Positions 2,422 to 33,079 of a DNA stretch of 64,000 nucleotides are shown here, piece after piece (position 1 is the first letter of the stretch; every line of letters begins with the position of its first letter). Source of the stretch: a virus; IMG/VR virus record IMGVR_UViG_3300021963_000077, positions 25,511-89,510 of that record; one strand, given 5' to 3'. The notes under the pieces were generated by a model. The model had not been told where the DNA came from. It worked only from the letters and a program-made list of their open reading frames with translations, and did not search any database. A program made the translations under genes and the position numbers.

Positions 2422-2472
2422 TTCTTTCTCCCTTGAGAAAAATTTATGGATTGGTATTTTGAGCGACACAGG

Positions 2473-2554: not shown

Positions 2555-2743
2555 TTATGATGGGAATTCTATAATCTGACCAGATTTCTCTGCTTCGTCA
2601 ATCAAAATCAATGCTTCTTTGAGCAATTGACGATTTTTAGGAGTATCTGGTACTTCAACTTCTTCAAGTGTGTCATCAAACATCGCAGCCATCAATATCT
2701 GCTGGTAGGTGTTGAAATCAACTTCTGATTTTTGATCTTTCAT
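2555..2743 (-). CDS. Small acidic protein, candidate partner/antitoxin of the upstream Zeta-like domain
   Basis: 62 aa; ATGA overlap with the stop of 2740..6345. Confidence 0.55.
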   Translation of the reverse strand: MKDQKSEVDFNTYQQILMAAMFDDTLEEVEVPDTPKNRQLLKEALILIDEAEKSGQIIEFPS

Positions 2744-5700
2744 GGTTCCTCACCTATGCGCATTGTGGTATTTAGGTTACTAGTGCTTAGGTACTGTTTT
2801 GTGCGATCATCAAAGATTTCCACAACCCAATTACCATTAGGACTCATGGCCTTGCGTGCTAGTAGCACTGGTTCACCGTCTGAATCATTAGCCCACAGGC
2901 TGAACTCATTAAAGTTACTCATTTCCATAGCCATAATATTTCGGAGATTTGCTTGAATTATGTCTACGTACTCTTCTGGCACTGATCTTCCAGTTTCTTG
3001 CTTTCTATTTCTTATGCGCGATAGCAAAACATCTCTATCACCAACGAAATAGTGCGCTTCAATTTTGTATCCAGCACGAGTCAGTCTGTCTAAAGTTCCT
3101 GGATCGTTGTTGAATTGACCACTTGAGTCAAAGACAACATCAAGCTCTTTTCTGATGGCTTCCTGGATGGTTGCGAATGCAATGTTTTGAGATTCCGTAT
3201 GTGTTGCACCAGCAGCCGATGAGTTGCCTCTTGATATATAGCCGTTGTACTCAGGTATTAATTGTTTCATTTCGTCAATGTCAACATGAGCTGCTTCACG
3301 ACGAGAAGGAATTCTCCCATCAAAACCATTAAGGCGTTGAGTTGTTTTTCCAGAACCTGGGGCGCCCCCAATGATAATCGCACGCTTTCTTAGCGTTGTC
3401 GGGTCGGTGCTATCTCTTTTCTTTGTTACGTAGTCAGTTATGCCACGCATAATTTCACGCCATACATTGTCGTAGCGCGAATCAGTAACTTTTCTTCCTC
3501 CAGCGCCATACTTTCCCATAGTGTGCTGACCACTCTGGTAGTCGCGTTCACTGAAGGTACTAGGCATCCTCTTGTCAATGTCAAGCATTTCATTGAGTTT
3601 GTAAGACGGCTGTGCCTGCATGGATCCAGATGGCCGACGTCCAGATGGTGTAACTATTGAACCCTTTGGAACAGAGCCACCAATTTTGTCTAGATAAGCC
3701 AGCGCGCTAATTTCTACAGGTGTAATTGACGATGTGCGCGTTCTTGCAGTTGACGCCATTGGCTTACTTGAGTAGTTACGCGTAGACATTGCACCAGATA
3801 TAAATCTGCGATACATGGGGTTATCAAGAAGTGCTTGATCTTGTGCTTTTCTAGCCTGAATAGCTTTTCTGTATTCAGTTGGCGACAGTGCCCTAACCGC
3901 ACCATCTGCTCGTTCCTCTGCGCGCTTGCGCATTTCCTCAAGCTTTGTCTTTTCATCTCTTAGTCTGTCAACTTTGGTATCTAGGCCATGGAATAAACCT
4001 CTTGTGCCACTACCAACTTCAGCATACTCATCAAGTTGCTGAATTAACTTCATAAACGTCGGGTTAGTATCTACTGCCCACTGATACATCCTAAAAGCAA
4101 AATCTTCCGACGACTCCCCATCTCCGCGGACTGGTTTTGTCTCGTAGAGCCAAGATCCAAGAACCATTGCCCGTGTGTATGCACGACGCGAAGCTTGATA
4201 TTCAGCCGATGCTTGATTGCGCGCATTTTTTACTCTGTCAAGCTTCCTATTTAGGCGACGGATCTTTTCATCAATTGCCTTTATTGAGCGAGGAACAGTT
4301 GCTCCTAAAGCATCAATCTCGGCATCAATCTCAGCATTTGCCTTGTTCACCTCATATGCATCACGGCGCTTGATCCATGAACGCTCAGCTGCATTTATTG
4401 CACGTTCAACGTCATCCTTGTCCATTCCGGACTCTTGTCCAGCTTTAAGCAAGGCGCTGCGAAGGATGCTACGTGGTGTTGAATACTCATCAGCTAGCTC
4501 TTGCAACCAAACATCTTCAGATGTGAATTGATTCCACAGATCTGCTCGCTTCTGTTGCGATGCCTTTGACCTTCCACTCCACGCATTTCTAAGTTGCTTG
4601 CGTTTTTCTTGGCTTGTAGAAATCTCGTCCGAGATGTCATCCCATGTTCGGTCATCATCGTCAAGGTCGCTATCAATGGCCGCCAACATTTTGTCCCAGT
4701 CAATTGACTCTGGATCCTTTAATTCTGGTGGCTCCGGTGCATATCTGTTTGGCTGATCCTCTATCCACTCACGCTCAACCCATGTTGGATTTGCAAATGG
4801 TGAGTCTTTCCAAATATCGTATGAATTAATTGCGTCATCAAAGAATGATTCATCGTCTTTAGCGGCTTGCTCGACTGATTCAATTAGCTCTTCATAAGCA
4901 CGCTCGTACTCATCCTCAACCAGACGCTCCAAGGCATCGTCCCATGGATCTTGATCGGAGCTTGGTGGAGGCGTTACCGACATTGCTCCAGCTATGCGAC
5001 GCTTAGACATTGACCCACTGACATTTTTGTTTTTTCGTGGTTCGCGTAGGTCTTCATCTTCATACCGAGCTGCAACCGCATCACCAAACGATTGAGCAAC
5101 AAGGGAGCGCAATGAATTCTTATCGTCTTCACTGAGGTCATATATTGCTGCTAGCTTTGAAAAGCTATCAAAGTCTTCAGGAAGATTAAGTTGACCGCTC
5201 TCTGGATCAAGGTATCCAGAACGTAACTCGTTTATTATTGAATAAAGCTTTGATTGTTGTGCTTTTTGTTGCTCTGGACTTAACGCATCTTCACCATCAG
5301 GATTATCAATCCTTCTAAGACTTGCTCGCATTTCGTCAGGCGTAGCGCTCAATATTTCTTTGGGTGACCTAAAACCAAATACTGCCTCCAACCTAGAAGC
5401 AGGAAGACTTTCAAGTTTTTCAGACGATACAAAACCAATGGCTTCAAATTGGCTCTCTATGTTTTTGAGTTTTCTATTGTCGCCTGGTTTACCGCTAAAA
5501 ATTGATGGCTCATCAATATATGGAGAATGCATCCATACTTCACCCTTTTGCGAATGGGTGATTGTAAAGCCTTGATCAATTGCTTCATTAACCCATTTCT
5601 TAAGCTTTGGATCTTGAATACGTTTCATTGCTTGGGCGGTTGTTTCTGGCTGTGGAGTCGTTCGTGTTCCACGACGCAGCTGTGCAATATCTTCAACCCT

Positions 5701-6345
5701 CAGAGCACCAGATATACGGCGAGGCCGTACCGCTGATGGTATTACTCTTGGCGTTGATGGGCGCTCAAATGCAGTTCCCTCTTGCACTAGACCATCTGAA
5801 TCACCATCAACAGCATTTGGATCATATGGTTCAGTATTTCTAGATATACGGCGAAGCTTTCTTCCCAGTGCTTTAGTATCCTGCGTTTGACCAGACTTTG
5901 AAGATTTGCTCTTCCATGGGTGACCTTCAGGCAGCAGGTCCGAATCTCCAACATAACGAAGATTTGTTGGTTTACCCTTATCAAGCATTTTGAGGAATGC
6001 GTTTACGCGTCCGTATGCCCACTGGTTGCGAGACATGCCTGGTCTGTGTGAGCTTGAATAAGCACCAGCGCCGCGCCTAAATACCGCCTTTAGCGTACCA
6101 ACGCTTGCCATGGCGTGACTTGGCCGGCCAAGTTCAGACATCTTCTTGTTGTGGATACGTACTTTTACCTGAAGTGCTCTAACTATGTCTTGTGACAGAT
6201 CTATATCTTTTGCGCTTGACGCAGAAGACGCTGAACCTCTCTGGTTTTTAGAGGATCCAACGATTCGTTCGGATGGTTTTGATGGGGTTGCAGCTAGGCG
6301 GTCTTTTCTAGCCTTGCGCATTTTTTTGTTATTTTCACTCATCAT
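2740..6345 (-). CDS. Modular polyprotein: N-terminal HRPG/WAYGRV domain, DGD cassette, HicA-like domain, C-terminal Zeta-toxin-like P-loop kinase
   Basis: GGAPGSGKTT, HVDIDEMKQLIPEY, VVFDSS, RIRNRKQETGRSVP (Zeta-like). AIDQGFTITHSQKG...PGDNRKLKNIESQFEAIG (HicA-like). Five SG[AS]M-type linkers. Confidence 0.75.
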   Translation of the reverse strand: MMSENNKKMRKARKDRLAATPSKPSERIVGSSKNQRGSASSASSAKDIDLSQDIVRALQVKVRIHNKKMSELGRPSHAMASVGTLKAVFRRGAGAYSSSHRPGMSRNQWAYGRVNAFLKMLDKGKPTNLRYVGDSDLLPEGHPWKSKSSKSGQTQDTKALGRKLRRISRNTEPYDPNAVDGDSDGLVQEGTAFERPSTPRVIPSAVRPRRISGALRVEDIAQLRRGTRTTPQPETTAQAMKRIQDPKLKKWVNEAIDQGFTITHSQKGEVWMHSPYIDEPSIFSGKPGDNRKLKNIESQFEAIGFVSSEKLESLPASRLEAVFGFRSPKEILSATPDEMRASLRRIDNPDGEDALSPEQQKAQQSKLYSIINELRSGYLDPESGQLNLPEDFDSFSKLAAIYDLSEDDKNSLRSLVAQSFGDAVAARYEDEDLREPRKNKNVSGSMSKRRIAGAMSVTPPPSSDQDPWDDALERLVEDEYERAYEELIESVEQAAKDDESFFDDAINSYDIWKDSPFANPTWVEREWIEDQPNRYAPEPPELKDPESIDWDKMLAAIDSDLDDDDRTWDDISDEISTSQEKRKQLRNAWSGRSKASQQKRADLWNQFTSEDVWLQELADEYSTPRSILRSALLKAGQESGMDKDDVERAINAAERSWIKRRDAYEVNKANAEIDAEIDALGATVPRSIKAIDEKIRRLNRKLDRVKNARNQASAEYQASRRAYTRAMVLGSWLYETKPVRGDGESSEDFAFRMYQWAVDTNPTFMKLIQQLDEYAEVGSGTRGLFHGLDTKVDRLRDEKTKLEEMRKRAEERADGAVRALSPTEYRKAIQARKAQDQALLDNPMYRRFISGAMSTRNYSSKPMASTARTRTSSITPVEISALAYLDKIGGSVPKGSIVTPSGRRPSGSMQAQPSYKLNEMLDIDKRMPSTFSERDYQSGQHTMGKYGAGGRKVTDSRYDNVWREIMRGITDYVTKKRDSTDPTTLRKRAIIIGGAPGSGKTTQRLNGFDGRIPSRREAAHVDIDEMKQLIPEYNGYISRGNSSAAGATHTESQNIAFATIQEAIRKELDVVFDSSGQFNNDPGTLDRLTRAGYKIEAHYFVGDRDVLLSRIRNRKQETGRSVPEEYVDIIQANLRNIMAMEMSNFNEFSLWANDSDGEPVLLARKAMSPNGNWVVEIFDDRTKQYLSTSNLNTTMRIGEEP

Positions 6346-7360
6346 TCAGAACCATTCCAATACTGGTAGAAACAAAGCGCCTACCATCGAGCATCCTTGA
6401 CTGAACCTCAATAAATTGAATTACAGAATTGTTTCTTTGAGACTTTTCTAATATAGCAATACCAGCAGACTTACCACGCATCATTCTTGTGACTCGCCTA
6501 GCAATTCTCTCTTCCGTAGCTCTTTCTCTTCGGTTGCGATCCCTCTGTGCTTGAGGTCCAATTCCTCGCCTACGACGATAATCGGATTCATTTGTGCACG
6601 GCATCCAAGCAACGCCACCACTAGTAGTTGAATATCTACGAATACCAATGCACCCGAGCTCGCGCGACCTCTTCAAGGCCGATGTCTGATTATCAAACAC
6701 ATCAGGATCCCCAGGACGGATTATCATAGGAACACCAAGAGAGTCCTTAACGTTGACAACCGTGCGAGTCGGCCATGCTGATTTCTGCGAACCCCTAGAG
6801 CGCCTATTTGGAAGATTGTCCCTCATTGCATCAAGATGTCGGATGCCTTCAACATCTTGTTCCTTTAGCACTCTGAGTACCGTTCTTAACCTCTTTATGC
6901 CTTCTTCGGTGAAGTTCATTGAGAGAGTTTCATCATCCTTTTTTACTGCGCCAGCTTGCTTGATTGCCGCAATTGCGCGCATCAGTGAGCGCCGGCGTTC
7001 TCGAGACTGGGTTTTGGAGTCTCCATACTCAAATTTCGGATCATTTAGAGCATCTTGCAGATACACCATCATGTCCGTGGAAAACTCATTCCATTCTCGC
7101 ATTGATATTCCAGATACATTAAATGTCTCTGGTTTGGCCGGCGAACGCGAATATAAGTCCTCATCAGGCTCACTATCTAGGTCCAAGTCTCCTAGAGCAT
7201 CACTTAGTTGAGGCTTTGGCGGGTTAAATCTACCCCAAGACATTGCTCCAGAAACTCTTGGTTTAGCAGGTCTTTGAAAAGGGGTTGCATCCTGAACTAG
7301 TCCGTCATTGTCACCATCAATGGCGTTTGGATCATATCTTTCAAAAATGCGACGTTTCAT
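6335..7360 (-). CDS. Protein with N-terminal DGD cassette and LGC...WMPC module
   Basis: MKRRIFERYDPNAIDGDNDGLVQDATPFQRP...RVSGAMS; RELGCIG...WMPC. Confidence 0.7.
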   Translation of the reverse strand: MKRRIFERYDPNAIDGDNDGLVQDATPFQRPAKPRVSGAMSWGRFNPPKPQLSDALGDLDLDSEPDEDLYSRSPAKPETFNVSGISMREWNEFSTDMMVYLQDALNDPKFEYGDSKTQSRERRRSLMRAIAAIKQAGAVKKDDETLSMNFTEEGIKRLRTVLRVLKEQDVEGIRHLDAMRDNLPNRRSRGSQKSAWPTRTVVNVKDSLGVPMIIRPGDPDVFDNQTSALKRSRELGCIGIRRYSTTSGGVAWMPCTNESDYRRRRGIGPQAQRDRNRRERATEERIARRVTRMMRGKSAGIAILEKSQRNNSVIQFIEVQSRMLDGRRFVSTSIGMVLNDE

Positions 7361-7644
7361 TGTTTTTTAGCACCGTTTTGTTTGCCCTTATTGTTGTCTG
7401 GTCTTTTGAGTACACCAGCTGCAATAAGAGTGTCAATATAAAGCTTCCCGACTCCAGCAGGCAATGTTGAAGCAATTTGCTGCACATTCATTATACGCAT
7501 TTGCTCTGATTGCGTGTGGTTTGAGTGGCGCGAGCCAGATTCTGGCCAGTTATTTATTTCATCACATTCTGCAATATTTTGGAAAAATAATTCACGTTTT
7601 TGTGGGTCAAACGAGTTAACTATTTTCATAATTTCTGAGTTCAT
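7357..7644 (-). CDS. Small hypothetical protein
   Basis: Start ATG 7644; ATGA overlaps with both neighbours. Confidence 0.6.
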   Translation of the reverse strand: MNSEIMKIVNSFDPQKRELFFQNIAECDEINNWPESGSRHSNHTQSEQMRIMNVQQIASTLPAGVGKLYIDTLIAAGVLKRPDNNKGKQNGAKKQ

Positions 7645-10394
7645 TTGTACCACCTAAACATTTCTGGAGTTGTTTTTATATATTGAAGTAATTCCGAGTA
7701 CTCGAACATCATTGATAGATTTGCGTCAGTTAGGCCATTCATTCCGGACTGAGCTCCATAGATGAAGTTAATGTGATGGCGGGCTGCCTCAAACCCAAGA
7801 AGCTCAGCGGCAGCTACTCCGTTTCGCCACTCACCATCTCGGTCAAAACTTAAACCAAAAATGAAATGATTGAGGTCGTGTATATGCTCAAATGGAGCTG
7901 CACCACCAGACGAAAGCAACTTAAACTCTGGATCGCGCATCCAGTCAAGAGCGATATCTAGATATGTACCACTGTCGGATATGCCGTATCGTTCCGATGT
8001 TTCTGGCAATCCAAGCTTTTCACGAATAGCCTTAATAATTGGGTTGTAATACTGAGCCAACTCATTCAGTTTATCTGAGTATGCAATTATTGAATCAGTT
8101 TGTTCTTTTGCGAATCGCCCTGCCTCGGTATCCGCAAACTCAATGTCTAAATTATTGAGCAATCCACGAGGCGTTGTGTCGTAGGGCGGATTTTCCTTTA
8201 CGTACCGATCATGCTCTTCCTTGTCATAGACAGGCGTTATTGGGGTTAGATATTTCATAAGAAAGGTCAAACCTATTCCTAGCCGGTCTGACTTTGGTGC
8301 ATTGTTTATTGTGTAGACATCTTCGCCATCTTTTGTTCTTGCTTTTAGAGTCTTACCATCCTTACTTCTTTCGGGTCTCCAAAATTCAGCAAGTTCTGTA
8401 TCTTTTATTACTTGGTTGAGTATGGCTTCGCTAATTTCACGAGCCTCGTCATCATCGGGCTGGAAAACTTCAGTCTTTATCCTGTCACGGTTTGGGCCAA
8501 ATTTATCGGCTAGGCCAGGTATTTCTGGAAGGCTCATAATTACGGACCCAGAAGGGCCTTCAGCTAGCTCAACCTCTGAAATGCGTTGCTCAGGTTTTTC
8601 AAATACTGGAAAAGCTTTTTCAAAAGCATCTTTTTGCTCTTCGTTCAGTTTTGAGAATGCAGACATTGATGCGGTTACCGCTAGTGGTCGTTCAAATGCT
8701 GTTGAGTCTTGAACTAATCCATCACCATCGCCATCTTCAGCATCTTGATCAAAGCGATCCGTTAGTGATTTTTTCTGAAGAGGAAGTTTTCTATCATCTG
8801 GACATGGTCCGGGATTGTCCCAATAATCCAAATGACCGACATAATGCTTTGTATGAGCCCTGTAGCTTTCAATCATGAACCTTACAGAATTGAACTCTTT
8901 ACAAAGACCAAGAACCTGGAGAGATCTTGCCATTTTCCATATACGCGTTCCATAAACCGAGCTTGGTGACTGACCGTTTGCAAAGTCTGGATTATCAATC
9001 CATTCTTCCTTGTCTAGATCCCACGCCAAGGCAGATGTATAAAGTCTGGCAGCTTCAGCTACAGAGTCAGTAAACTCTTTGTTTTTGCGGAGTTTTTTAA
9101 TGTTGGTTTTGGCTAGGTTGTAGCGTTCTCCATACGCTATTGATCCGCGGTCAATGGGAAATGTCCACCAGTCATAATGCTCTGAGTGAAATTTTTTCCA
9201 GTTTGAATTATTAGCATATTCTTTGAATTTAGCAACTTGTGCTTTTTGATCTTTTATTACTGATTCATCTCCACCATATGGAGCATCATTCCAATAGCGT
9301 TTTTTCTTCTTTTTTGCTCTGAACTTAGAGAGCCAGTTTGACCCAGTTTTTTTCCGTTTTGCTGGTGAGGAAGGGCCTTGTGCGCCAAAATCAAGCGTCA
9401 TCTGCACGGGTTTTGATGGACGAGAGTTTGGAGCATCGGCGGAGCCAAGGGAGTCAATAAATGACTCATCTAGCGCTGTCTCCTCGAGCGCATCGTAGTC
9501 TTCCTGTAGTTCTTTTAACTCTTCTATGGATAGACCCGCAAAATGCGGATACATCCTATTGAGCGTATCTTCACTAATAGATGGGTCAAAACGGTCTGAG
9601 ACATAGTCTTCAAAGTCAATCAAGTCATCTGTAGAAAAAGCATCAATCAGCCTGAATGGCTGAGCAAAATCATCAAGCTCATCTGTTCCAAAAGAATCAT
9701 CCGGTAGCAAGTTTCGGTCAAGAATGTAACCGCGCACAAGATCTGCATGCTGTGAGTCTGGAAGACTTGCTAGATTTGGATAGTAATCAGCTAGAGATTC
9801 TCTATTTTCCCCAGATAATATTGCCTCAACATACTCAGGCACTACATCAAAATCGTCTGAATTTAATTTTGATAGTATCTTTTTATATGCTTTTAAGGCT
9901 GACTCATCCTCGTCATTTATTCTTGCCATTGCCCCGACGATGCGCCTATTTGATGAAGGTCTTTTACCCATACGAGGTTTATCTGGTCTTTGCCAAGATG
10001 TTCCATCTTGAACAAAGCCATCTTCATCACCGTCAATAGCATTTGGGTCAAACCGCTGATTCAGGTTCCGTATGCGTGGAAGAGCCTTTCCAGAAACCTC
10101 AGCACTGACTAGTCCTCCACCTGGGAGGGTATCAATACCTAAAGGGCCACGCTCCGAAAGATTCTCCCAGTTGGAACCACGTTTTTTGCGTTTGGTTTTG
10201 CGATATACCTGATCAGGTATATCGTCGGTAGCCTTGTATTCGCGCTTTGGGTTTGACGTTTCAGCTTCGTTTGAGATTCGCTGAAGAGTTTCGTGCGAAT
10301 CGCACGGCATCCAGTTGCCGTCACCGTCTTGGTGAGCACCAGAGCAGCCTAGATACCCTGCAACCTTAAGAGCTTCCTCTTTACTGCTTGCCAT
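7641..10394 (-). CDS. Modular polyprotein: LGC...WMPC module, two DGD cassettes, OGFr/DUF1810-like domain, C-terminal HDxxH domain
   Basis: 917 aa; HYDWWTFPID...RIWKMARSLQVLG; HIHDLNHFIFGLSFDRDGE. Confidence 0.7.
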   Translation of the reverse strand: MASSKEEALKVAGYLGCSGAHQDGDGNWMPCDSHETLQRISNEAETSNPKREYKATDDIPDQVYRKTKRKKRGSNWENLSERGPLGIDTLPGGGLVSAEVSGKALPRIRNLNQRFDPNAIDGDEDGFVQDGTSWQRPDKPRMGKRPSSNRRIVGAMARINDEDESALKAYKKILSKLNSDDFDVVPEYVEAILSGENRESLADYYPNLASLPDSQHADLVRGYILDRNLLPDDSFGTDELDDFAQPFRLIDAFSTDDLIDFEDYVSDRFDPSISEDTLNRMYPHFAGLSIEELKELQEDYDALEETALDESFIDSLGSADAPNSRPSKPVQMTLDFGAQGPSSPAKRKKTGSNWLSKFRAKKKKKRYWNDAPYGGDESVIKDQKAQVAKFKEYANNSNWKKFHSEHYDWWTFPIDRGSIAYGERYNLAKTNIKKLRKNKEFTDSVAEAARLYTSALAWDLDKEEWIDNPDFANGQSPSSVYGTRIWKMARSLQVLGLCKEFNSVRFMIESYRAHTKHYVGHLDYWDNPGPCPDDRKLPLQKKSLTDRFDQDAEDGDGDGLVQDSTAFERPLAVTASMSAFSKLNEEQKDAFEKAFPVFEKPEQRISEVELAEGPSGSVIMSLPEIPGLADKFGPNRDRIKTEVFQPDDDEAREISEAILNQVIKDTELAEFWRPERSKDGKTLKARTKDGEDVYTINNAPKSDRLGIGLTFLMKYLTPITPVYDKEEHDRYVKENPPYDTTPRGLLNNLDIEFADTEAGRFAKEQTDSIIAYSDKLNELAQYYNPIIKAIREKLGLPETSERYGISDSGTYLDIALDWMRDPEFKLLSSGGAAPFEHIHDLNHFIFGLSFDRDGEWRNGVAAAELLGFEAARHHINFIYGAQSGMNGLTDANLSMMFEYSELLQYIKTTPEMFRWYK

Positions 10395-10396
10395 GG

Positions 10397-10786
10397 CTAC
10401 ACCATGAAATTATCTATAACTAAATTGGAACTCTTATTATCTTTGATATAAGCTTTTGTTGCTTCTTCTGGGGATTTGTACCTCGACGCATACATCTCGG
10501 CTTCTGCTATTTCTGTTTCAAGATCCTTCATAAACTTGTCAAGGAAGTTGTCTGAAAATGTTTTGGAACGATTAATAGCTTTTTGTGCATCAGTGATTGC
10601 TTGAACAAATGCTGATCTGATCTTTGACAATTTCTCATCGCCGCCAATTTCATAGTTCAGTGGCGGAAAGTTGGATACTCGATGAAGCTCAGCGAGACGT
10701 GCGTTGAGCTCTGCCTGTTTTTCAAGTTCGTCTTGGCTCAACGATTCTTCTTCAAGCCAGTCTGCTGAAATGTATGTAGCTGCCAT
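10397..10786 (-). CDS. Small acidic helical protein
   Basis: Start ATG 10786, 2 nt after the stop of the 1984-aa ORF. Confidence 0.6.
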   Translation of the reverse strand: MAATYISADWLEEESLSQDELEKQAELNARLAELHRVSNFPPLNYEIGGDEKLSKIRSAFVQAITDAQKAINRSKTFSDNFLDKFMKDLETEIAEAEMYASRYKSPEEATKAYIKDNKSSNLVIDNFMV

Positions 10787-10788
10787 GA

Positions 10789-18758: not shown

Positions 18759-18759
18759 T

Positions 18760-19452
18760 TCAGAATCCCGAGCACTTCCCGCATTCACATTCAGATTGCT
18801 CTGGTTTCCACCACTCATGCGGAACTTCAGTTTCTTCGTCAGCATCACCAATATGTATCCAGTTGCTGTCATCTGCTATGTACATAGCAAATTGCGGCTC
18901 CATTTCAACAAAATCACGCAATACTAGGTTTGCGTGCTCAAAGTCTGCGTCTGTGATCACTGGAACAAACGGCTCGTTTGGTGCAATTACTCCCGACCAC
19001 TCCATCTCTTTACGTCCTTGGCGAGATGTGAGCTTCCTCAGCCTGTCATCAAATTCGCGATCAGACCATACACTGCCCCTCACGACGCCTTTCATTTTGC
19101 GACGGCAGTTCTTCATTCCTGGATGGTGACATCCCTCATTTGGCCATAGTCCAGTAGTCTCGTGGTGTAGCCAGGCGCAAATATTATTCAGGGGGTATAG
19201 CTCTGGGTGGTCAGCAAGAATCACACGACAGCGCCTAAAACCACCTGGCTTTTTCATTATCGGACGCCAATAGCGCAGCAGTCTCTCTAGGTTGCCTCTT
19301 CTTGGGCCATATCCACGAAGCACATCACCAGTAACTGCCTCTTGGGCAACAACATCTATGCCTGAAGCATTCTGTAGAGCGTTTAGCTGAGATGCGCCTG
19401 GCGCTTTTTTAATAACTATATTGTTTATCTCTGCAAAGTGTTCAAATGTCAT
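18760..19452 (-). CDS. Hypothetical protein with Cys/His motif
   Basis: LLRYW...GGFRRC...ICAWLHHETTGLWP; ATGA overlap. Confidence 0.65.
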   Translation of the reverse strand: MTFEHFAEINNIVIKKAPGASQLNALQNASGIDVVAQEAVTGDVLRGYGPRRGNLERLLRYWRPIMKKPGGFRRCRVILADHPELYPLNNICAWLHHETTGLWPNEGCHHPGMKNCRRKMKGVVRGSVWSDREFDDRLRKLTSRQGRKEMEWSGVIAPNEPFVPVITDADFEHANLVLRDFVEMEPQFAMYIADDSNWIHIGDADEETEVPHEWWKPEQSECECGKCSGF

Positions 19453-19853
19453 TGCTCATCCAGTTCTTTCAATAATTTTTCAAGCTGTTTGCGGGAACCA
19501 TCTGGGAGGTTTTTGGCAATTTGGCGCAATTTAGCAAACTGTTCTGGCGATGCTTTTATCGAGTTAAGCTCCGTATTTCTAAGCTCAGAACTTGGACTAA
19601 CTGCGAATACATCTTTTATTCCACTCACTACATTAGCATCTTCAATAATCCCAGAAATGTCAGAAGCAGACATTGGCCTAGATCTCGCGCGATCTGAAAT
19701 TTGTGGCTTGAAGCGATCCATTGAGTCATTGAATCCAGACTTATTAGGCTCGTATCCACCGCTCTTTACGCTCTTTGGCGGCTTAACACTTACCAAGGAG
19801 TCTTTTGAACTAGACAGTTCCTCGTAAAGTTTTTCATGTGCTCTGCTACTCAT
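19449..19853 (-). CDS. Small hypothetical protein
   Basis: Start ATG 19853 in ATGA overlap with the 1445-aa ORF stop. Confidence 0.55.
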   Translation of the reverse strand: MSSRAHEKLYEELSSSKDSLVSVKPPKSVKSGGYEPNKSGFNDSMDRFKPQISDRARSRPMSASDISGIIEDANVVSGIKDVFAVSPSSELRNTELNSIKASPEQFAKLRQIAKNLPDGSRKQLEKLLKELDEQ

Positions 19854-24187: not shown

Positions 24188-24204
24188 GTCGCCTCCAGTT
24201 TTAA

Positions 24205-24429
24205 TTACTCAGAAATGATTTCTTCTGATGCAGAGGTTTCTTCTGTAGCAACTTCTTCAACTGCATCCGCAACTTGTGGCTCCGCAACTGCCTCTGCGAC
24301 CGCCTCTTCAACAGCTTCAACCTTAGGTTCACGACGCTTTCTCGTCTTAAATTCCTTTAGTTCTTCTGCCTTATTTTCAACAGCGATCATAAATCCAGCG
24401 GGTCCTGGTTGTGACTTCTTCTTCATCAC
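24205..24429 (-). CDS. Small protein, basic N-terminus and Glu/Ala-rich C-terminus
   Basis: ORF overlapping the upstream stop. Confidence 0.55.
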   Translation of the reverse strand: MMKKKSQPGPAGFMIAVENKAEELKEFKTRKRREPKVEAVEEAVAEAVAEPQVADAVEEVATEETSASEEIISE

Positions 24430-25838
24430 TTCTCCGTTTCGTCAACGCCGTGCTCAGTTGCGAGCATTTCAAATTCCATTAGAGATGCAAGGAAGCTTGC
24501 TTCTTCAGACTTTTCTCCGCCAGAGAACTTCTTCTTAACATCTTCTGGCACCCAATTACTAGGAATGAGTTCGTCAAGACCGAGCGACATGGCTCGCTTC
24601 ATGATGTGAGCCTTCGTGGCTTCTTTGTCCTTTGCGCGGCCATATGCCTGAACTGCGTTCCTAAGGTCGGCTTCATCCTTAATTGGGTATGAACCATCTG
24701 GTAAGGCATAGCCTTGCTTGGCCATTGACATTCTTGACTCTTCGCTGTAAGCACGCTTGAGCGCAATCTCCGCTGCCTCTGCTTCTATTTCTGAAGCTTC
24801 TTCCTGCGTGTACTCGTCGTAACCAAGAATTTCGCCAGACAATGAAACAAAGACATCATATGACTTTCCGTCAATGCCCTCTATCTCAACTGCATAGCTG
24901 TCGTATCCCTCAAAGATGTCTGGCTCAATTGCAACAACATCGCCCATAACGCTCTTTGTTGCGATATCTGCTGCTTCCTCAAAGCCAATCATCTTGTTGC
25001 CCTCAAGGGCCGACTTGACTTGAAGTACATCCTGATTCAAAAGCTGCCATCCGAGGCACTCACCGGTCTCGCCGTCAAAAAATGCCTCAACAGGACGACC
25101 GTCTTTGCGCTCAATGTCAACAACAAATAGGTCAGCCTTGTCGGAGAATCCAGAATCAAGGACTTTGCCACTAAACATATCTTCAGCAATTCCTTCAATT
25201 TCAAGAAGACCAGGCATTGAACCCTCAGATACGCAGCCGCCTGGGCAGTTATCGCAAACCGAGGACCCACCAGGATAAACCTTGCGCTCAAATGCGCACA
25301 TGAAAGCTTCCTCGTCAAAGTCAGCTGACTTATAGCCCATTGAGTTCATACGGCGCATACGCATCTTCTTGCGCATGGCGACCATGTCTACTTCTTCTTC
25401 TTCTTCTTCGTCTTCGTCTTCGTCTTCTTCTGACATTTCATCAGATTCTTCTTCAGACTCGGCATCCATGGACTCGTCGTCCATCTCTTCCTCGTCGTCC
25501 ATCTCGTCTTCGTCTTTTTCGGCCATGAACTCAAGGATCGCTTTTACATAAGCATCATCGTCCATATCTTCATCGTCAAGTTCTTCACCCATGGCCATGT
25601 AGTCTTCAACCATTTTCTTTGGGGTCTTCTTCTTGCGGACTGGAGCCATTGGCATTGCGTCCTCATCGTCCTCGTCTGAGCCCCACATGTATCCACCCTT
25701 GACAGATGTAGCCATAGCTCCGCACTTTCCGCAGACCTTTGCGCCGGGCTCATAGCCACATTCAGATAGATCTAGACCCTTGGCACACTGGATGATTTCA
25801 CCGTCTGCATCTAGTTTGACTATAGCTTTTTCGTCCAT
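24426..25838 (-). CDS. Acidic protein with Cys clusters, two PepSY-like domains and a C-terminal ALPDGSYPI module (DUF6582-like)
   Basis: Start ATG 25838 (TAATG overlap). IGFEEAADIA...GDVVAIE...YAVEIEGIDGKSYDVFVSLSGEILG plus a preceding copy ending FDGETGECLG. Confidence 0.65.
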   Translation of the reverse strand: MDEKAIVKLDADGEIIQCAKGLDLSECGYEPGAKVCGKCGAMATSVKGGYMWGSDEDDEDAMPMAPVRKKKTPKKMVEDYMAMGEELDDEDMDDDAYVKAILEFMAEKDEDEMDDEEEMDDESMDAESEEESDEMSEEDEDEDEEEEEEVDMVAMRKKMRMRRMNSMGYKSADFDEEAFMCAFERKVYPGGSSVCDNCPGGCVSEGSMPGLLEIEGIAEDMFSGKVLDSGFSDKADLFVVDIERKDGRPVEAFFDGETGECLGWQLLNQDVLQVKSALEGNKMIGFEEAADIATKSVMGDVVAIEPDIFEGYDSYAVEIEGIDGKSYDVFVSLSGEILGYDEYTQEEASEIEAEAAEIALKRAYSEESRMSMAKQGYALPDGSYPIKDEADLRNAVQAYGRAKDKEATKAHIMKRAMSLGLDELIPSNWVPEDVKKKFSGGEKSEEASFLASLMEFEMLATEHGVDETEK

Positions 25839-26032
25839 TACGACTCCTTGTATTGCATTGACTTTGTCAGGCAACCTTTGGGATTAGTGCATCCTCCACA
25901 TGGTTGCATTCTTTTTTCGCCTGTAACCATGCAGTGATACTTATGTTGAAGATTGTTTGAACCTATTGGTTTAGAATAACCCATTTGAGCCCCACTCTGT
26001 GGGTACTTTGGTGATTTCTTATTCTTTGCCAT
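25838..26032 (-). CDS. Small Cys-rich protein
   Basis: HCMVTGEKRMQPCGGCTNPKGC. Confidence 0.55.
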   Translation of the reverse strand: MAKNKKSPKYPQSGAQMGYSKPIGSNNLQHKYHCMVTGEKRMQPCGGCTNPKGCLTKSMQYKES

Positions 26033-26076
26033 GTGGATCAAAATCCTAATCTGTATAACGACTGGATCATTTTATA

Positions 26077-27150
26077 CTAACCCGAATACCGTAGCTTTGG
26101 TGGCTTCTTGATCCGAGGTCTAGCTTTTTCAGCATTCCTCAATGCTTCGAGCATTTTGGCTCTGTTGATCTTGACATCCACGATTCGCATACCAAATTTT
26201 TCAGCTGCTTCCGCCTCGGAGTGATTGCTGAGGTAGAGCAAGAAGCTTTTCGCATTGGGTGTCAATACTTGTGGATGATTATTAATTAAATTAATGATTT
26301 CTGTATTAACGCCTTCTAGTTTCTGATCTGCTTCAGTATCAATGATGCGATTGTCTGGAGTGTTGAGATTAAATTCTTCGTTATATCGTTTAATAAATTT
26401 ACCGACTAACGCTTGGCTAACTTTTAAAGCCTCAGCAATTTTTTCGTATGATATTCCGTACTGTGAAAAAGTGTACATTAATTGACCTTTTTCCAGAGAC
26501 GATAAATCACTTAACCCAATGTCAAAATCCCTTACAGATCTGTCCACGGTTGATTTGTCTACACCGAATGCCTTGGAAACTTCATCTTTGCTAAATCCAT
26601 ATTTTCTAGCAACTGAAATAATTTTACGCTTTTGCTTAAAAACGCTTCTAGCAGAAATGTTATTTTTTTTCAAAACGACAGAAACATAGTCGCTTGTCAC
26701 TCCAACATCCTGCGCAATTTGATTTGGCCCAATGCCGAGTCTTGCCTGTCTTACGATTTCTTTGATGCGCCCGCTGCGATCCACATTTGAAGTGCTTACA
26801 TTTCCTAGCTTTTGTTTATTACGTGAGGCGCGCCTAACGGTCGCAATGCTTACTCCATATTTCTTAGCTAGGGCTTTTGCTATCTCGGCTCGCTCTTTTG
26901 GAGTTTTGCCTTTGGCTATTTCTTCGGCCATTTCGTTGCTTCTACGCTCAAATTCAGCTACAGAAGATGCTTGGTTTACAGTTCTTCCCACTCCTGTAGT
27001 CATGCTTCCGGAGACCGCGCGACGAACTGAGGGTCGTTCAAACTGTGTTGCGTCTTGAATTAGGCCGTCGCCGTCACCATCAAATGCGTTTGAATCAAAC
27101 CTATCGGTAAGGCGCCCTAGGCGGCGTGCGTCGCCTGTGCGCCTCAGGCT
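26077..27150 (-). CDS. Multi-HTH protein; -1 frame extension carrying a DGD cassette (likely expressed as a frameshift fusion with 27144..27503)
   Basis: Five HTH-like repeats (e.g. LAKKYGVSIATVRR, IAQDVGVTSDYV). The frame is open for 49 codons upstream of ATG 27003, back to the slippery site, with no ATG/GTG/TTG in that stretch. Confidence 0.7.
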   Translation of the reverse strand, partial: SLRRTGDARRLGRLTDRFDSNAFDGDGDGLIQDATQFERPSVRRAVSGSMTTGVGRTVNQASSVAEFERRSNEMAEEIAKGKTPKERAEIAKALAKKYGVSIATVRRASRNKQKLGNVSTSNVDRSGRIKEIVRQARLGIGPNQIAQDVGVTSDYVSVVLKKNNISARSVFKQKRKIISVARKYGFSKDEVSKAFGVDKSTVDRSVRDFDIGLSDLSSLEKGQLMYTFSQYGISYEKIAEALKVSQALVGKFIKRYNEEFNLNTPDNRIIDTEADQKLEGVNTEIINLINNHPQVLTPNAKSFLLYLSNHSEAEAAEKFGMRIVDVKINRAKMLEALRNAEKARPRIKKPPKLRYSG

Positions 27151-27156
27151 TTTAAA
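27110..27156 (-). other. Programmed -1 ribosomal frameshift signal (T TTA AAA plus GC-rich stem-loop)
   Basis: Heptamer 27156-27150 is in frame; 5-nt spacer; AGGCGC (27144-27139) pairs with GCGCCT (27115-27110), with an inner GGCG/CGCC stem. Confidence 0.7.
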
Positions 27157-27503
27157 TCAAGACCGCTAGCAACAGACTTGACTACAGCACTAATTGCATC
27201 TATTGCGTCTTCGTCCAGGTAATCCATATCCTCGATAACTAAAGACTTTGTTTCCTGCTGTATGGAAACACCGTAGTAATCAAGCACGGGCTCAAGAAAA
27301 GATTTAGCCCCCATCAGGGCCTCGTCGTCGCCAGTAATCACAAGGTTTACCTTGTTCTTGCCGCCATCAGATGAATCTATGACTTCCGCCAAAAGCTCTA
27401 AGGCTTGTCTTAATTTGCCCATATTCCTGTTGCTAATAACGCGACCACTCTTTACGTCAATGTCGTTTCCATATGGTGTTGAAAGAAAAATTTTAGTTTC
27501 CAT
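27144..27503 (-). CDS. Head-module protein with KSGRVISxxN motif
   Basis: Start ATG 27503 (TAATG overlap with protease stop). VKSGRVISNRNMGKLRQAL resembles the KAGRVLS motif seen in C-terminal extensions of HK97-type proteases. Confidence 0.65.
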   Translation of the reverse strand: METKIFLSTPYGNDIDVKSGRVISNRNMGKLRQALELLAEVIDSSDGGKNKVNLVITGDDEALMGAKSFLEPVLDYYGVSIQQETKSLVIEDMDYLDEDAIDAISAVVKSVASGLDLKA

Positions 27504-30460
27504 TATCGCCTGTTCCCATAATCTCGCCATAACTGTTGAAGTCTGTTTAAATCAGCTGTTGATATTTGACCATTGTCAAAGCGCTCTAAAATTCTCTGAA
27601 CTATTTGAAATCCGCGATTTTTCCTAGCCCAATCAATTGATTGATTCTGCTGTCTTGTGAGAACCCTTTTGCCTATTTTTCCACTTTGCAGTTGCTTAAG
27701 CATGTCGTCTAGCCCTTGGCCAGATCTGGCCCCAAACTGTTTTGCGGTGTCATAGTCGAGTTCATACTGCTCAACACTGCCATCACCCATATTGAATATG
27801 ACGCGGTTTGTCTGTGGGTCATATGCGGCATCCGATACTCGCCTGCTACCTCGAGTATCAAACTTCATTAAATAACTAGGAATTGCTGGCCTGTCTGGAT
27901 TATCTTGACCCGATCCAGTCATTGACCCAGACACGGAGCGCTTGTTCTTGCGACTACGAAGAACGTCTAGGAAATCTTCCACGGCATTGGCTGGGCGAGG
28001 CTCCAAAACTGAGTTTGCGTGGATCCTCTCAGCTTCGCTTTCGCTAACTTTATGTTCTTCCGTCCTACCATTAATCAATGTAAAACGAGCAGTACCAGAC
28101 TCTTTGTCGTAGGTAGCGTCTTTTAGGATTCTTGAACCACGCGTGTCAAATGATGGAGTTTTGTTATCTTTGCTCCATCCAAACTTTTCTAGGTGTTTTC
28201 TAGCCTCTTCGCTAAACCCTGAATATTGCGGCTTGGGGCGATTTGAAATAGATCCAGATACGCGAGGAGTTTTATCTTTTGGGTTATCACCCTCAGTACG
28301 ACGTTTCATAGAGGCAATTCGCATTTCAATTTGCCTAACTTGAGCACGTGTCATATTCATGCGTTGCGATACGTCATCGAGCGACATACCGTCCTCTGTG
28401 CGCATTTTCCAAATTTGATCACGAATTTTCTTGGCTTGGCGCATTTCAGATTGTCTCACCTCTTCACGCGTGATGCCAAAATTCTTCGCAACTTCATCCA
28501 GCGACATGCCGCCTTCTGTGCGCATTTTCCAAATCTTCTCTGGTGTCGGCTTGCCCTTTGCCATTGAACCAGATATCCGCGACCCAACTGGTACTGGTCT
28601 TTCTGGCCGTGGCCCAGGCGTTGGCGTTGGTGCAGGGCTAGGAACCGATGGTCTGACTGGTGGGCGAATTGGCTCTCTTGCTGGCTCCGGAACCTTTCGC
28701 GGTGGATTCATTGGGGGCATCATGCGAGGCGCATTTGGGCGCTCAAATGATGTGCTGTCTTGCACTAAACCGTCTTCGTCCCCATCAATTGCATTAGGAT
28801 CAAAACGATCTGTTGCCATTCTCCCCATACGTCTGAGTTTGCGACCAACAGCCTTCTCTTCTAAGAAGTTAATTGCCGTCAGTAGCGCCTCGTAGCCCTC
28901 TTCTGACATGGAGTCACTGTTTGGAACAACAAGACCATCTTCAAGACTCTTGACATCAAATCCATGATATTTAGCTACAGCACTAGCTACCTCTAGCAAT
29001 TCATCAATTTCGCTTTCGGATTGGATAAATAGATGAATTCCAGGGTTTTCACTCTTGAAAGCATCCCATGACGGCATGTCATCAATGACATATGATTTCC
29101 CACCACCACATCCACAACCACAATCATCCTTAGCCGGCTTCATGGCCACTCCGCCAAATGCCGCTCCAAAGTCATCATTGTCGTCGCCTACATATGCATT
29201 TCCTGGAGCGCTTTGTGGCTTGCCAACAGGCATGTAAATTGTCTCTGGCTTCACCGTTTCAGCATTTCCAAACATGAATTCGCCATCTTCGTAGTGATAG
29301 CCGACTCGGATTGTCTGCATATCTCCGAAGTCGTTCATGAGGTCAAAAATAACCATGTTTTTATCTGCTGTACGGATTTTTACTTTGCCGCCAAACCGTT
29401 GAGAAATAGCCTTGGCAAGGTCGTTAACACGCCCAAATGCTGGATTCATCTCCTCGTCGCCAGTATAGATACGGGATGTGTCGTAGCTAGGGTGGCCTTT
29501 TTTCTTCACATTCTGGTATCTCTCAAGGAGTCGCCGGCCTTTAGCTGCAAGCTCTGCTGCATCGGATGCATTTTTAGGAACTGGTTCACCCCATGCAGCG
29601 GCAGCTAGCGCTAGACGAGTCGGCTTGCCATTTTTGCCGACAAGTGGGCCAGATGGGTTTGTATAGAATCGCGTCAAGAACGAGCCTTTACGACGCATTT
29701 TCTCTGGTGTGTCAGCTGGGCCCTTGACGCCTGGCTTTAGATTTGCGCCTTCCTTCTGCTTAAAGTACTTGCGCCCTGCTGGCGTCAGGCCACCCTTTGG
29801 ATCCCTCAAATTTGCTGATTTGCCTTCAGGCTCAGAAGGCACGCAATTTGGCACCATTTTGCCGTTTTTGCCCTTCTTCATTCCTACCTGCTGGTAACCG
29901 GGCCAGCAAGGACTACCTGCCTTGCTTTCCGGATCGTCGGATTTGATTGAAATTGTGCCAGTCAGCTGATTGGCTCCGTGGAGAACTGGGGAAACCTCAT
30001 AGAGTTCAACCTCTTTAAGGAGATTTGCTTGCTGAACTGGGTCAAATACTGCGTCAAGGGTCTTGTAACCAATTGACCACTCTTGCTCTTCGCCAAAGAA
30101 GGCAACATTATTGAAAGCCTCACGACCACGCTCAGAACGCAAATTAAATTGCACTCTTGCATAAAGTCCACCAATTCCGGCTTTTTTCATCTTTAGCGGT
30201 AGGCGTGGATCATTCGGTGGCACCTCATATATTTCCAGAACCTTACCGATTGGCTCATTCCAGTTATGACCCCAAACAACTCTCGGCTTACGTCTTTTAA
30301 GACTTGCTCCAAAACAGTTCGGGAGGCAAATATCGCCAACAGAATCTTTATTGCCGATGCCAGCAACGAAGCATTCAACGATGCCCTGCGCTTCGTCAAC
30401 CCCGATTTGAGCTGGAATTGACTTGTATTCTGTTGCAAATAGCGATGATTGGTCAGACAT
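27503..30460 (-). CDS. HK97-family prohead protease fused to CWPGY module, GGLT..GR module (DUF6321-like), DGD cassette, 2x sigma70-region-4-like HTH and 2x KTSC-like domains
   Basis: GNKDSVGD, VVWGHNWNEPIGKV, WSIGY, LKEVELYEVSPVLHGAN (His/Ser protease motifs) in the first ~175 aa. Confidence 0.9.
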   Translation of the reverse strand: MSDQSSLFATEYKSIPAQIGVDEAQGIVECFVAGIGNKDSVGDICLPNCFGASLKRRKPRVVWGHNWNEPIGKVLEIYEVPPNDPRLPLKMKKAGIGGLYARVQFNLRSERGREAFNNVAFFGEEQEWSIGYKTLDAVFDPVQQANLLKEVELYEVSPVLHGANQLTGTISIKSDDPESKAGSPCWPGYQQVGMKKGKNGKMVPNCVPSEPEGKSANLRDPKGGLTPAGRKYFKQKEGANLKPGVKGPADTPEKMRRKGSFLTRFYTNPSGPLVGKNGKPTRLALAAAAWGEPVPKNASDAAELAAKGRRLLERYQNVKKKGHPSYDTSRIYTGDEEMNPAFGRVNDLAKAISQRFGGKVKIRTADKNMVIFDLMNDFGDMQTIRVGYHYEDGEFMFGNAETVKPETIYMPVGKPQSAPGNAYVGDDNDDFGAAFGGVAMKPAKDDCGCGCGGGKSYVIDDMPSWDAFKSENPGIHLFIQSESEIDELLEVASAVAKYHGFDVKSLEDGLVVPNSDSMSEEGYEALLTAINFLEEKAVGRKLRRMGRMATDRFDPNAIDGDEDGLVQDSTSFERPNAPRMMPPMNPPRKVPEPAREPIRPPVRPSVPSPAPTPTPGPRPERPVPVGSRISGSMAKGKPTPEKIWKMRTEGGMSLDEVAKNFGITREEVRQSEMRQAKKIRDQIWKMRTEDGMSLDDVSQRMNMTRAQVRQIEMRIASMKRRTEGDNPKDKTPRVSGSISNRPKPQYSGFSEEARKHLEKFGWSKDNKTPSFDTRGSRILKDATYDKESGTARFTLINGRTEEHKVSESEAERIHANSVLEPRPANAVEDFLDVLRSRKNKRSVSGSMTGSGQDNPDRPAIPSYLMKFDTRGSRRVSDAAYDPQTNRVIFNMGDGSVEQYELDYDTAKQFGARSGQGLDDMLKQLQSGKIGKRVLTRQQNQSIDWARKNRGFQIVQRILERFDNGQISTADLNRLQQLWRDYGNRR
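28381..28534. repeat. 120-bp-period tandem duplication encoding two sigma-R4-like HTH units
   Basis: gcgacataccgtcctctgtgcgcattttccaaat at 28381 and gcgacatgccgccttctgtgcgcattttccaaat at 28501. Confidence 0.8.
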
Positions 30461-33013: not shown

Positions 33014-33079
33014 ATTTTCCTATACAACCATAGCCGATAAAGGCATACTAGTGTATGAGCACTCGAAGTGAGCAGGTTT

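Follow-up and report, generated by a model that had tools for sequence, protein, structure and literature searches.

A calcium-loop-like cassette shared by the prohead protease and neighbouring polyproteins of uncultured aquatic phages, a candidate head-loading tag

The internal proteins of phage T4 that carry a capsid-targeting sequence (CTS), like the propeptide-bearing proteins of SPN3US, enter the prohead, are substrates of the prohead protease and leave with the DNA at ejection (PMC7411985). In these systems (IPI-III and Alt in T4; the SPN3US/phiKZ-type propeptides), a short peptide is shared by otherwise unrelated proteins. Here we describe a cassette of about 40 residues with the same property, a peptide shared by unrelated partners, in the head module of an uncultured water phage (IMG/VR virus record IMGVR_UViG_3300021963_000077; 89,510 bp, completeness 60% by CheckV). 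The window analysed, 64,000 nucleotides long, comprises bases 25511-89510 of this record. The T4 CTS is an N-terminal propeptide of 10-20 residues that is cut at its C-terminal side by a T4-type protease, whereas the cassette is longer, contains an acidic, metal-loop-like hairpin, is mostly internal in polyproteins and is also present on the protease. Moreover, its candidate cut lies on the N-terminal side and would be made by an S78 (HK97-type) protease, and a part in loading is predicted for it. A CTS-like N-terminal position is found in 1 of the 7 window copies.

The second relevant system is HK97, whose capsid protein is cut at K103/S104, with L105 next (PMC10275583); as with gp4 and gp5 of that phage, the module described here has an S78 protease, a related capsid protein with a scaffold domain at its N-terminus and a K-[ST]-L boundary comparable to K103/S104-L105. 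In HK97, however, the protease and capsid genes are not separated by cargo genes and the cassette is absent, whereas about 25 kb of polyprotein genes are inserted here, and the protease has 985 residues, and up to 3188 in relatives. Work by Duda et al. in 2013 is said to have found that the C-terminal part of HK97 gp4 targets gp4 to the capsid.

Finally, polyvalent proteins are multi-domain proteins encoded beside virion genes and predicted to be packaged, processed and delivered with the DNA, and Zeta-toxin-like kinases fused to MuF were reported among them in phages (Iyer et al. 2017, PMC5512222). The proteins described here share this organization, with at least two unrelated effector-type domains on one polypeptide (S78, DUF6321 and Sigma70_r4; DUF5824 and Zeta_toxin) and genes placed between portal and capsid. 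The passages of Iyer et al. on these proteins describe no shared addressing cassette, and the main text uses the word calcium 0 times. Processing in the present system would also differ, being carried out by the prohead protease, to which some of the cargo is fused.

The cassette and the proteins that carry it

Seven copies of the cassette, all on the minus strand, lie between the portal and capsid genes in six proteins (985 residues; a frame of 359 residues; 1445; 917, with two copies; 341; 1201). In the window, the pattern is K-[AS]-[LVM], a basic run and then [FY]DPNAxDGDxDGLVQ[DE]xTxFERP. The copies are listed with the codons of the DGD.DG core, which were located by a six-frame regular-expression scan.

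28736..28855, minus: copy 1, in the protease, K-A-V-G-R-K-L-R-R ... F-E-R-P (core 28769-28786; profile E 1.6e-30)
27031-27153, minus: copy 2, in a frame with an array of helix-turn-helix (HTH) domains (core 27064-27081)
21695-21814, minus: copy 3, in the 1445-residue protein (core 21728-21745; profile E 2.5e-27)
9984-10088, minus: copy 4, in the 917-residue protein (core 10017-10034)
8685-8771, minus: copy 5, in the same protein (core 8718-8735)
7268-7360, minus: copy 6, at the native N-terminus of the 341-residue protein, then R-V-S-G-A-M (core 7301-7318)
5758-5874, minus: copy 7, in the 1201-residue protein (core 5791-5808)

An earlier note on this DNA, made from the sequence alone, had reported one full motif beginning with R-[FY]-D for all seven copies. 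Six of them carry it (28736-28807, 21695-21766, 9984-10055, 8685-8756, 7268-7339 and 27031-27102), while in the 1201-residue protein P-Y-D replaces R-[FY]-D and the rest is intact. The same note had seen the motif nowhere else in the window, which the six-frame scan and a profile search bore out and extended to the whole 89.5-kb record: a profile of the seven copies (alignment A1) recovered the same seven (E 1.6e-30 to 1.3e-23) and zero further cassettes anywhere in the 89,510 bp. Likewise, the copy described as sitting at a native N-terminus does so, the M-K-R-R-I-F-E-R start being encoded by an ATG at 7360. The K-[AS]-[LVM] and Arg-rich leaders were found as quoted except for LKSLRR, which is absent from any single frame; the HTH-array frame opens with F-K-S-L-R-R right after a stop, and L-K-S-L arises only via a -1 shift from a 128-residue open reading frame (ORF). 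As for the sequences downstream of the copies, said to be unrelated, no BLASTP match (E<=1e-3) was obtained among 11 flanking segments, although two of the regions share HTH/sigma-70 region 4 domains according to Pfam.

Two trivial origins of the repeat were discarded. Chance or low complexity is ruled out by the profile E values (1e-23 to 1e-30) and the size of the family. Recent internal duplication is ruled out as well, since the window paralogues are 53-63% identical to copy 1, compared with 84-98% for orthologous copies in related contigs, and the flanks share nothing by BLASTP.

The cassette-bearing genes, together with the small ORF p128, are as follows.

27503..30460, minus: 985-residue prohead protease polyprotein (Pfam: Peptidase_S78 E 3.1e-9, DUF6321 E 1.2e-27, Sigma70_r4 E 2.2e-10)
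27144..27530, minus: p128, a 128-residue ORF encoding by itself the domain found before the cassette in relatives' proteases
26077..27156, minus: open frame with cassette copy 2, then the HTH-domain array (Pfam: HTH_23 E 8.5e-16 and others)
19850..24187, minus: 1445-residue protein, cassette copy 3 between two halves, each with HExxH (22913-22927 and 20879-20893)
7641..10394, minus: 917-residue protein, N-terminal DUF3721 and two cassettes
6335..7360, minus: 341-residue protein, N-terminal cassette and DUF3721 at residues 222-258
2740..6345, minus: 1201-residue protein, DUF5824 (81-136), cassette, long linker and Zeta-toxin-like kinase (981-1138) (Pfam: Zeta_toxin E 2.4e-22, DUF5824 E 2.3e-6)

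In the protease, the S78 domain (residues 27-170) is followed by DUF6321 (219-290), a p128-like domain (aligned in A3), the cassette (536-575) and a C-terminal part with two sigma-70 region 4 HTHs and two further repeats. The NCBIfam model proheadase_HK97 also gives a match to this protein (E 2.1e-10), which falls short of the model cut-off. The p128 ORF, for which no Pfam, PHROG or NCBIfam match was found, aligns along the p128-like domain of 18 relatives' proteases (alignment A3; jackhmmer matches), and this domain precedes the cassette in 21 distinct protease segments. A model of the domain from a 20-row alignment shows a helix and then a beta-alpha-beta-beta-alpha arrangement, with a predicted local distance difference test (pLDDT) score of about 80. 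The 1445-residue protein falls in no Pfam family, and its HExxH halves may be metallopeptidase-like domains; in three related loci (L006, L010 and L026) the halves are separate genes, the second starting with a leader of about 20 residues, K-A-L and the cassette.

An alignment of 77 cassettes (A4) gives the consensus K-x-L-G-x3-R-R-x2-R-x4-R-F-D-P-N-A-x-D-G-D-x-D-G-L-V-Q-E-G-T-x-F-E-R-P, with D, D, D, Q and R invariant and F-D-P-x-A and R-P nearly so. When these 77 rows were given to AlphaFold2, the loop-hairpin was predicted with pLDDT 86-87 and a short beta bridge, the basic helix before it being less confident. The loop resembles that of Excalibur (PF05901), whose motif DXDXDGXXCE binds Ca2+ through three Asp and the Glu at position 10 (PMC8391695). 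The spacing, D-x-D-x-D-G-x-x-(C/Q)-(E/D), is identical, but position 9 of the cassette is Gln and never Cys, the residues at D1, D3, D5 and Q9 being the invariant ones; G6 and D/E at position 10 are present in 7/7 window copies, and G6 varies in a few relatives. The flanks F-D-P-N-A and T-x-F-E-R-P are unrelated to Excalibur, which occurs in secreted bacterial proteins, in contrast to the intracellular head module that holds the cassette. Membership in the family was ruled out by a Pfam scan, in which no match to PF05901 was obtained at E<=0.01 among the 17 window proteins scanned, and by the isolated cassettes, which gave a weak match (E<=1) in 4/77 cases with a best E of 0.0041. Bacterial proteins with DUF1524 and Excalibur match the cassette profile only via the loop D-G-D-x-D-G-V-V-C-E, with 9-14 bits per stretch. 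By sequence, the cassette is Excalibur-like in its loop spacing and is not a member of the family.

Candidate cut sites and a candidate frameshift at the cassette border

The sites considered are the following.

1117..2424, minus: major capsid protein of the HK97 type, scaffold (delta) domain at the N-terminus (Pfam: Phage_capsid E 3.5e-47)
2086-2100, minus: candidate maturation site E-F-K/S-L (K111/S112) at the capsid scaffold/shell boundary
3619..28579, minus: linker motif R/K-x-[IVPA]-[STVA]-G-[AS]-[MLI], 12 sites, 11 of them at domain borders of five cassette proteins
28562-28579, 28247-28264, 27920-27943, 27001-27024, 9927-9950 and 7241-7264, minus: linker sites, examples
5701-5721, 5008-5031, 4981-5004, 3787-3810 and 3619-3639, minus: linker sites, further examples

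The capsid protein matches the HK97 gp5 chains in the PDB with E ~1e-58, and an S78 protease and an HK97-fold capsid protein with a scaffold domain occur in the same module. Of the aligned capsid proteins of relatives, 22/22 keep E-F-K-[ST]-L at their scaffold boundary, and its equivalence to HK97 K103/S104 is plausible. The best PDB match to the capsid protein, 9lbm, has a similar stretch, S-F-K-A-M. A PDB sequence search with capsid residues 85-175 gave 0 matches at E<=10, and the HK97 cut site is not placeable by alignment.

A comparable motif accompanies the cassette. Of 343 non-redundant copies of at least 30 bits, 216 have K-[AGS]-[LIVM] upstream of the loop, at a distance of 7-40 residues from its first Asp, compared with 138 of 1258 control windows taken from the same proteins; in a further 71 copies, at or near a native N-terminus, the open frame starts no more than 40 residues before. 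The consensus around the Lys is [ED]-[ILTV]-x-x-K-[AS]-[LI]-G-[RG]-x-[IL], with G at +3 in 144/213. Copies at native N-termini start at about the same distance from the loop as the predicted neo-N-termini. In addition, the strict form of the linker motif, [IVL][ST]G[AS]M, occurs 6 times, spread over 4 cassette proteins, and is absent (0 sites) from the 17 remaining long frames listed. Across the family, R-x-[IV]-S-G-[AS]-M is mildly enriched (43/343 copies against 41/1258 controls), and the S-G-[AS]-M linker is therefore a feature of this lineage, in which it may serve as a second processing site. Both motifs would share [AS]-[LMIV] after the putative scissile bond.

The border of cassette copy 2 (27105-27156, minus) has a further peculiarity, as the missing LKSLRR leader suggests a -1 frameshift from p128.

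27150..27156, minus: T_TTA_AAA, a slippery heptamer read in the p128 frame; GCC and the TGA stop are the two codons left before p128 ends
27108..27146, minus: G+C-rich hairpin 3 nucleotides after the heptamer (minimum free energy -22.1 kcal/mol, z -2.45, 5/200 shuffles as stable)

The p128 ORF ends with GAT TTA AAA GCC TGA, and a -1 slip would read L-K-S-L-R-R into the cassette frame, which has a stop immediately before the heptamer and no ATG, GTG or TTG before the cassette (its first ATG is at 27003). The heptamer is identical in two relatives (L002 and L011), where the hairpin is kept and C>T changes keep or improve its pairing, and contigs of 3 independent runs cross the heptamer with 0 gaps, by which an assembly error was discounted. 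In-frame X_XXY_YYZ (Y=A/T) is rare in the window genes, at 46 of 18,735 codon positions. In another lineage (L069), an ORF composed of protease, DUF6321 and p128-like domain ends with GAA AAA AAA GTC TGA, and a slip on A_AAA_AAA would enter a frame of 978 residues that begins with K-K-S-L and the cassette (site region L069:9950-10030); the hairpin is weaker there (z -1.52, 16/200 shuffles), and the ORF layout is the same in the near-identical L071-L073. Both slippery sites fall exactly at the K/S-L junction. Two different sites at the same protein position in two lineages favour programmed frameshifting, and the -1 shift would yield a minor p128-tag-cargo product. In retroviruses, Gag is the bulk structural protein and the minor -1 frameshift product, Gag-Pol, carries extra domains into the particle, where they are freed by the viral protease. 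The predicted shift differs in that it would join a small head-module domain to a tag and an HTH array in a tailed phage.

A second candidate frameshift, T_TTA_AAC (27545-27551, minus), would join the protease to p128. It lies 49 nucleotides before the protease stop, exactly where the p128 frame opens; L001, L002 and L011 read C_TTA_AAC, the downstream fold reaches only -6 kcal/mol, and the site was judged to be due to chance.

Distribution and genomic context of the cassette

The cassette is a real, widespread and undescribed module. A pattern search of IMG/VR matched at least 597 stretches, of which at least 504 were confirmed, and a HMMER search over 1.84 billion cluster representatives returned 810 proteins at E<=1e-3, 131 at E<=1e-10 and 2 at E<=1e-30. 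A word-seeded search of longer proteins added 197 matches among 7155 candidates. Precomputed Pfam domains among the matches listed were S78, DUF6321, Zeta_toxin, DUF3721, DUF5824, NUDIX and several HTH families. In prokaryotes (one genome per species, 185,579 in all), a narrower pattern gave 40 stretches and 3 confirmed loci, all three being contigs of metagenome-assembled genomes with the same head module. Among deposited phage records, a megablast of window positions 2555-27500 gave no match, and neither did tblastn against 50,697 of them with the 47-residue cassette (E<=0.01) or with the first 165 residues of the 917-residue protein (E<=1); in these searches, the BLAST low-complexity filter may hide the cassette loop. 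The family phrog_7924, of unknown function, matches the cassette core of the 917-residue protein (E 6.9e-9). Pfam, NCBIfam and PHROGs do not name the cassette, in titles and abstract openings of open PubMed Central papers and bioRxiv we found no description of it, and in the same open literature neither DxDxDG together with phage and capsid nor the three DUF names gave a result. The earlier impression that this is not a described family agrees with the lack of a name in Pfam and NCBIfam and with the Excalibur comparison.

A looser repeat, D-G-D-G-D-G-h-h-[YH]-D-G-T-x-x-x-R-P, was observed 3-4 times per protein in three giant proteins of 1682-3015 residues (P0144, P0147 and P0158), often with K-A or T-K in front, and probably represents a remote branch of the cassette module.

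The context of the cassette was analysed in 76 IMG/VR loci, in which our hidden Markov model found 104 further copies. Some loci are near-duplicates, and the following tallies therefore count copies and not independent events.

31/104: in S78 polyproteins
38/104: flanked on both sides by head-module genes
14/104: next to head-module genes on one side
4/104: in p1445-like proteins
4/104: just downstream of the capsid gene
13/104: in a locus without a recognised head gene

In the window, the head module is delimited upstream by the portal gene, and the gene order from there is portal-MuF, the S78 protease polyprotein, p128, the HTH-repeat frame, an acidic protein of 482 residues, proteins of 1445, 150, 230, 709, 1984, 133, 917, 98, 341 and 1201 residues, and the capsid protein.

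30554..32794, minus: portal with a C-terminal MuF-like domain, 746 residues, upstream module border (Pfam: Phage_portal E 7.3e-50, Phage_Mu_F E 1.9e-9)
24426..25874, minus: acidic 482-residue protein, directly after the protease/p128 genes in relatives too (synteny); weak PepSY match only

The order conserved in relatives, obtained with profiles seeded with the window proteins, is portal-MuF, S78 protease, p128, acidic protein, p1445-like, p230, p709, p1984, cassette proteins, an X-cassette-Zeta kinase protein and capsid protein; the X-cassette-Zeta protein directly upstream of the capsid gene is thus kept. The protease of relatives has the S78 domain with or without DUF6321, the p128-like domain, the cassette (located after the catalytic domain in 31 instances) and a tail of varying content, as long as about 2600 residues, with UvrD-type helicase or sigma-4 domains. 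More generally, the domains downstream of the cassette vary (Zeta_toxin, NUDIX, HTHs, UvrD helicase), as had been proposed. Five other long records have 4-7 copies each, and in a complete 137-kb record 4/5 copies lie within 68-91 kb, the last of these beside the capsid gene. In two loci (L030:1095-9866 and L041:8288-17851), the protease forms the N-terminus of polyproteins of 2924-3188 residues with a UvrD/REP-type helicase after the cassette.

Proposed cargo loading and other explanations of the cassette

We favour the view that the cassette is a tag for head loading, common to its carriers, with a protease cut site next to it, and put its probability at roughly 55%. It is favoured because one peptide is found on the protease and on 4-7 unrelated polyproteins, in one type of head module, with a cut motif at its N-terminal edge. 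We infer loading and cleavage from gene layout and motif conservation. The cassette would be a short docking module in which an acidic loop-hairpin of Excalibur-type spacing comes after a basic helix, and late in infection it would bind one common receptor inside the assembling procapsid; the capsid scaffold domain, the very acidic 482-residue protein (a candidate scaffold or receptor), p128 and portal-MuF are candidates. Protease and cargo would thereby co-assemble into the head, in analogy to the T4 CTS and to the C-terminal targeting regions of other prohead proteases. The S78 protease would then cut at K/[AS]-[LVM] upstream of each cassette and the capsid protein at E-F-K/S-L, with probable further cuts in this lineage at the R-x-[IV]-S-G-[AS]-M linkers, so that the Zeta-like kinase, sigma-4/HTH and HExxH modules would be freed as separate pieces. 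These pieces would accompany the DNA out of the head and work in the host, probably an actinobacterium, at an early stage. For one cargo, the HTH array, production would be confined to a minor p128 product extended by a -1 frameshift, as with Gag-Pol.

This order of events departs from the earlier note, in which prohead cleavage exposed a tag that packaged, anchored or ejected the proteins. As worded, that proposal is not supported: the protease works inside the already assembled procapsid, a tag exposed by this cut alone would come too late for loading, and the tag must therefore act before cleavage. After cleavage, the tag could still anchor or eject.

Several observations weigh against a loading tag. 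The association with head modules, which the earlier note made a test of its proposal, holds for the 87/104 copies in the protease, in another head protein or beside head genes and for the 3/3 prokaryote loci; against it stand the 13/104 copies in loci lacking any recognised head gene, most of which tag the N-terminus of giant ORFs (1900-3400 residues), and the 4/104 just downstream of the capsid gene. The closest cultured relatives are Gordonia phages, with capsid proteins about 47% identical; in the one record searched, that of Gordonia phage Chidiebere (47% identical), 0 cassettes were found and the protease gene lies directly before the capsid gene, so this capsid type does not depend on the tag. 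With free Ca2+ low in the cytoplasm, a Ca2+-dependent assembly step is not obvious. When the p128-like domain and the cassette were modelled together from 20 rows, the cassette was a low-confidence coil (pLDDT 51-58), and Foldseek against the PDB (E<=0.001) found no match for this model (mean pLDDT 62.7) or for the cassette model (71.1); weak KH-like and ring-building-motif-like rows carry no conclusion. Relative to the aligned shell domain, the window K111 is about 29 residues more distant than HK97 K103, which makes the equivalence of the capsid cut sites uncertain. The mean identity of the capsid scaffold domain (64.5%) is below that of the shell domain (83.1%); since the scaffold is the less conserved part, its conservation was uninformative as a sign of a shared receptor. 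Finally, the presence of the cassette proteins in virions and their cleavage are themselves deduced from the genes.

The giant ORFs are of interest in their own right. They were observed in L044, L046, L047, L058, L061 and L074 and mostly lack a Pfam domain, with HTH arrays in giants; the recognised neighbours in L044, L047, L058 and L061 are WhiB, sigma and AAA_25 helicase genes, not a head module.

Unlikely, in our view, is that the cassette is a processing module, an exosite that recruits the S78 protease and fixes the K/[AS]-L cut, with loading left to the p128-like domain, the N-terminal domains or MuF. It would explain why K-[AGS]-[LIVM]-G stays with the cassette even where the leader before it measures only about 20 residues; the protease's own cassette could serve autoprocessing, and the p128-like domain, which precedes the cassette in the 21 protease segments and is also the zero-frame product p128, could be the assembly domain. 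Most cassette proteins, however, are without a p128-like domain and hence without any shared loading element, the 71/343 copies at native N-termini need no upstream cut, and an exosite need not be this long or conserved.

We consider it doubtful, and less probable than an exosite, that the cassette is an ejection or post-ejection signal, whose basic helix and metal loop would lead the fragment through portal and tail or fold or anchor it in the Ca2+-richer envelope. The similar loop distance of native N-terminal copies and predicted neo-N-termini, the contractile tail (a tail sheath gene is present) and MuF-portal fusion of the window phage, and the occurrence of Excalibur-type loops in extracellular bacterial proteins (PMC8391695) are consistent with such a role. 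The protease, on the other hand, carries the cassette too, and ejection of a prohead protease is unexpected; DUF5824 and the N-terminal half of the 1445-residue protein would stay untagged.

It is improbable that the cassette serves large phage proteins as a generic linker or structural repeat that binds Ca2+, with no role in addressing and with an incidental head location: the 13/104 copies away from recognised head genes and the looser D-G-D-G-D-G-h-h-x-D-G-T repeats, 3-4 times in the three giants inspected, would fit, but the strict tie to one head-module type, the presence on the protease, the conserved K-[AS]-L leader, the recoding sites at the cassette border and the absence from 50,697 deposited phage records (tblastn, two queries) do not.

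Returning to the loading tag, a more general form of it is possible but tentative, and we hold it with less than even confidence: the cassette would direct cargo in general into an HK97-fold capsid and so resemble, in function, the peptides by which encapsulins load theirs. A whole clade of abundant aquatic myophages, probably of actinobacteria, would load 4-7 polyproteins (kinases, sigma-like DNA binders, peptidases, helicases and NUDIX enzymes) and dismantle them at K/[AS]-L with the co-loaded protease into an injected takeover kit, the dose of some cargo being set by -1 frameshifting where the tag begins. If the cassette is a loading tag, it provides a sequence rule that lists head-delivered proteins in hundreds of uncultured aquatic phage genomes and a transferable peptide with which foreign proteins could be put into HK97-type capsids. 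The 'minimal' capsid system of the textbooks, that of HK97-like phages, would then be able to accommodate cargo genes totalling tens of kilobases between the protease and capsid genes, and capsid targeting, polyprotein processing and programmed frameshifting, usually separate fields, would be linked. Even if the loading idea fails, a large module with 810 representative clusters is unmodelled by Pfam and NCBIfam.

Another motif was observed in the head module, the Cys-flanked R-C-P-x(n)-G-(G/Q/R)-(Q/R)-F-T, common to the 1445-, 709- and 1984-residue proteins, all without an N-terminal cassette. It is found at 23594-23632, at 18354-18392 and near the N-terminus of 10789-16743 (all minus), and jackhmmer cross-links p1984 with the N-terminal half of p1445; the motif may be a second shared element.

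Outside the head module, which is transcribed leftward, the genes from 33 kb run rightward and include terminase, tail sheath, tape measure and fibre. To the left of the window, the record encodes WhiB, an AAA_25 helicase-like protein and ribonucleotide reductase.

33068-34384: terminase, packaging gene beside the head module
record positions 2555-5532 (left of the window): WhiB-like, AAA_25 helicase-like and sigma-70 region 4 genes

WhiB is an indicator of actinophages (PMC10202952), and the closest deposited phages infect Gordonia and Brevibacterium; because of both, the host is likely actinobacterial. Further along, also left of the window, an S-adenosylmethionine decarboxylase-like gene was observed with the ribonucleotide reductase. 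Within the window, a gene resembling 3'-phosphoadenosine-5'-phosphosulfate reductase (39000-40163, plus; phrog_2302 E 1.4e-72) is located between the packaging genes and those for the tail.

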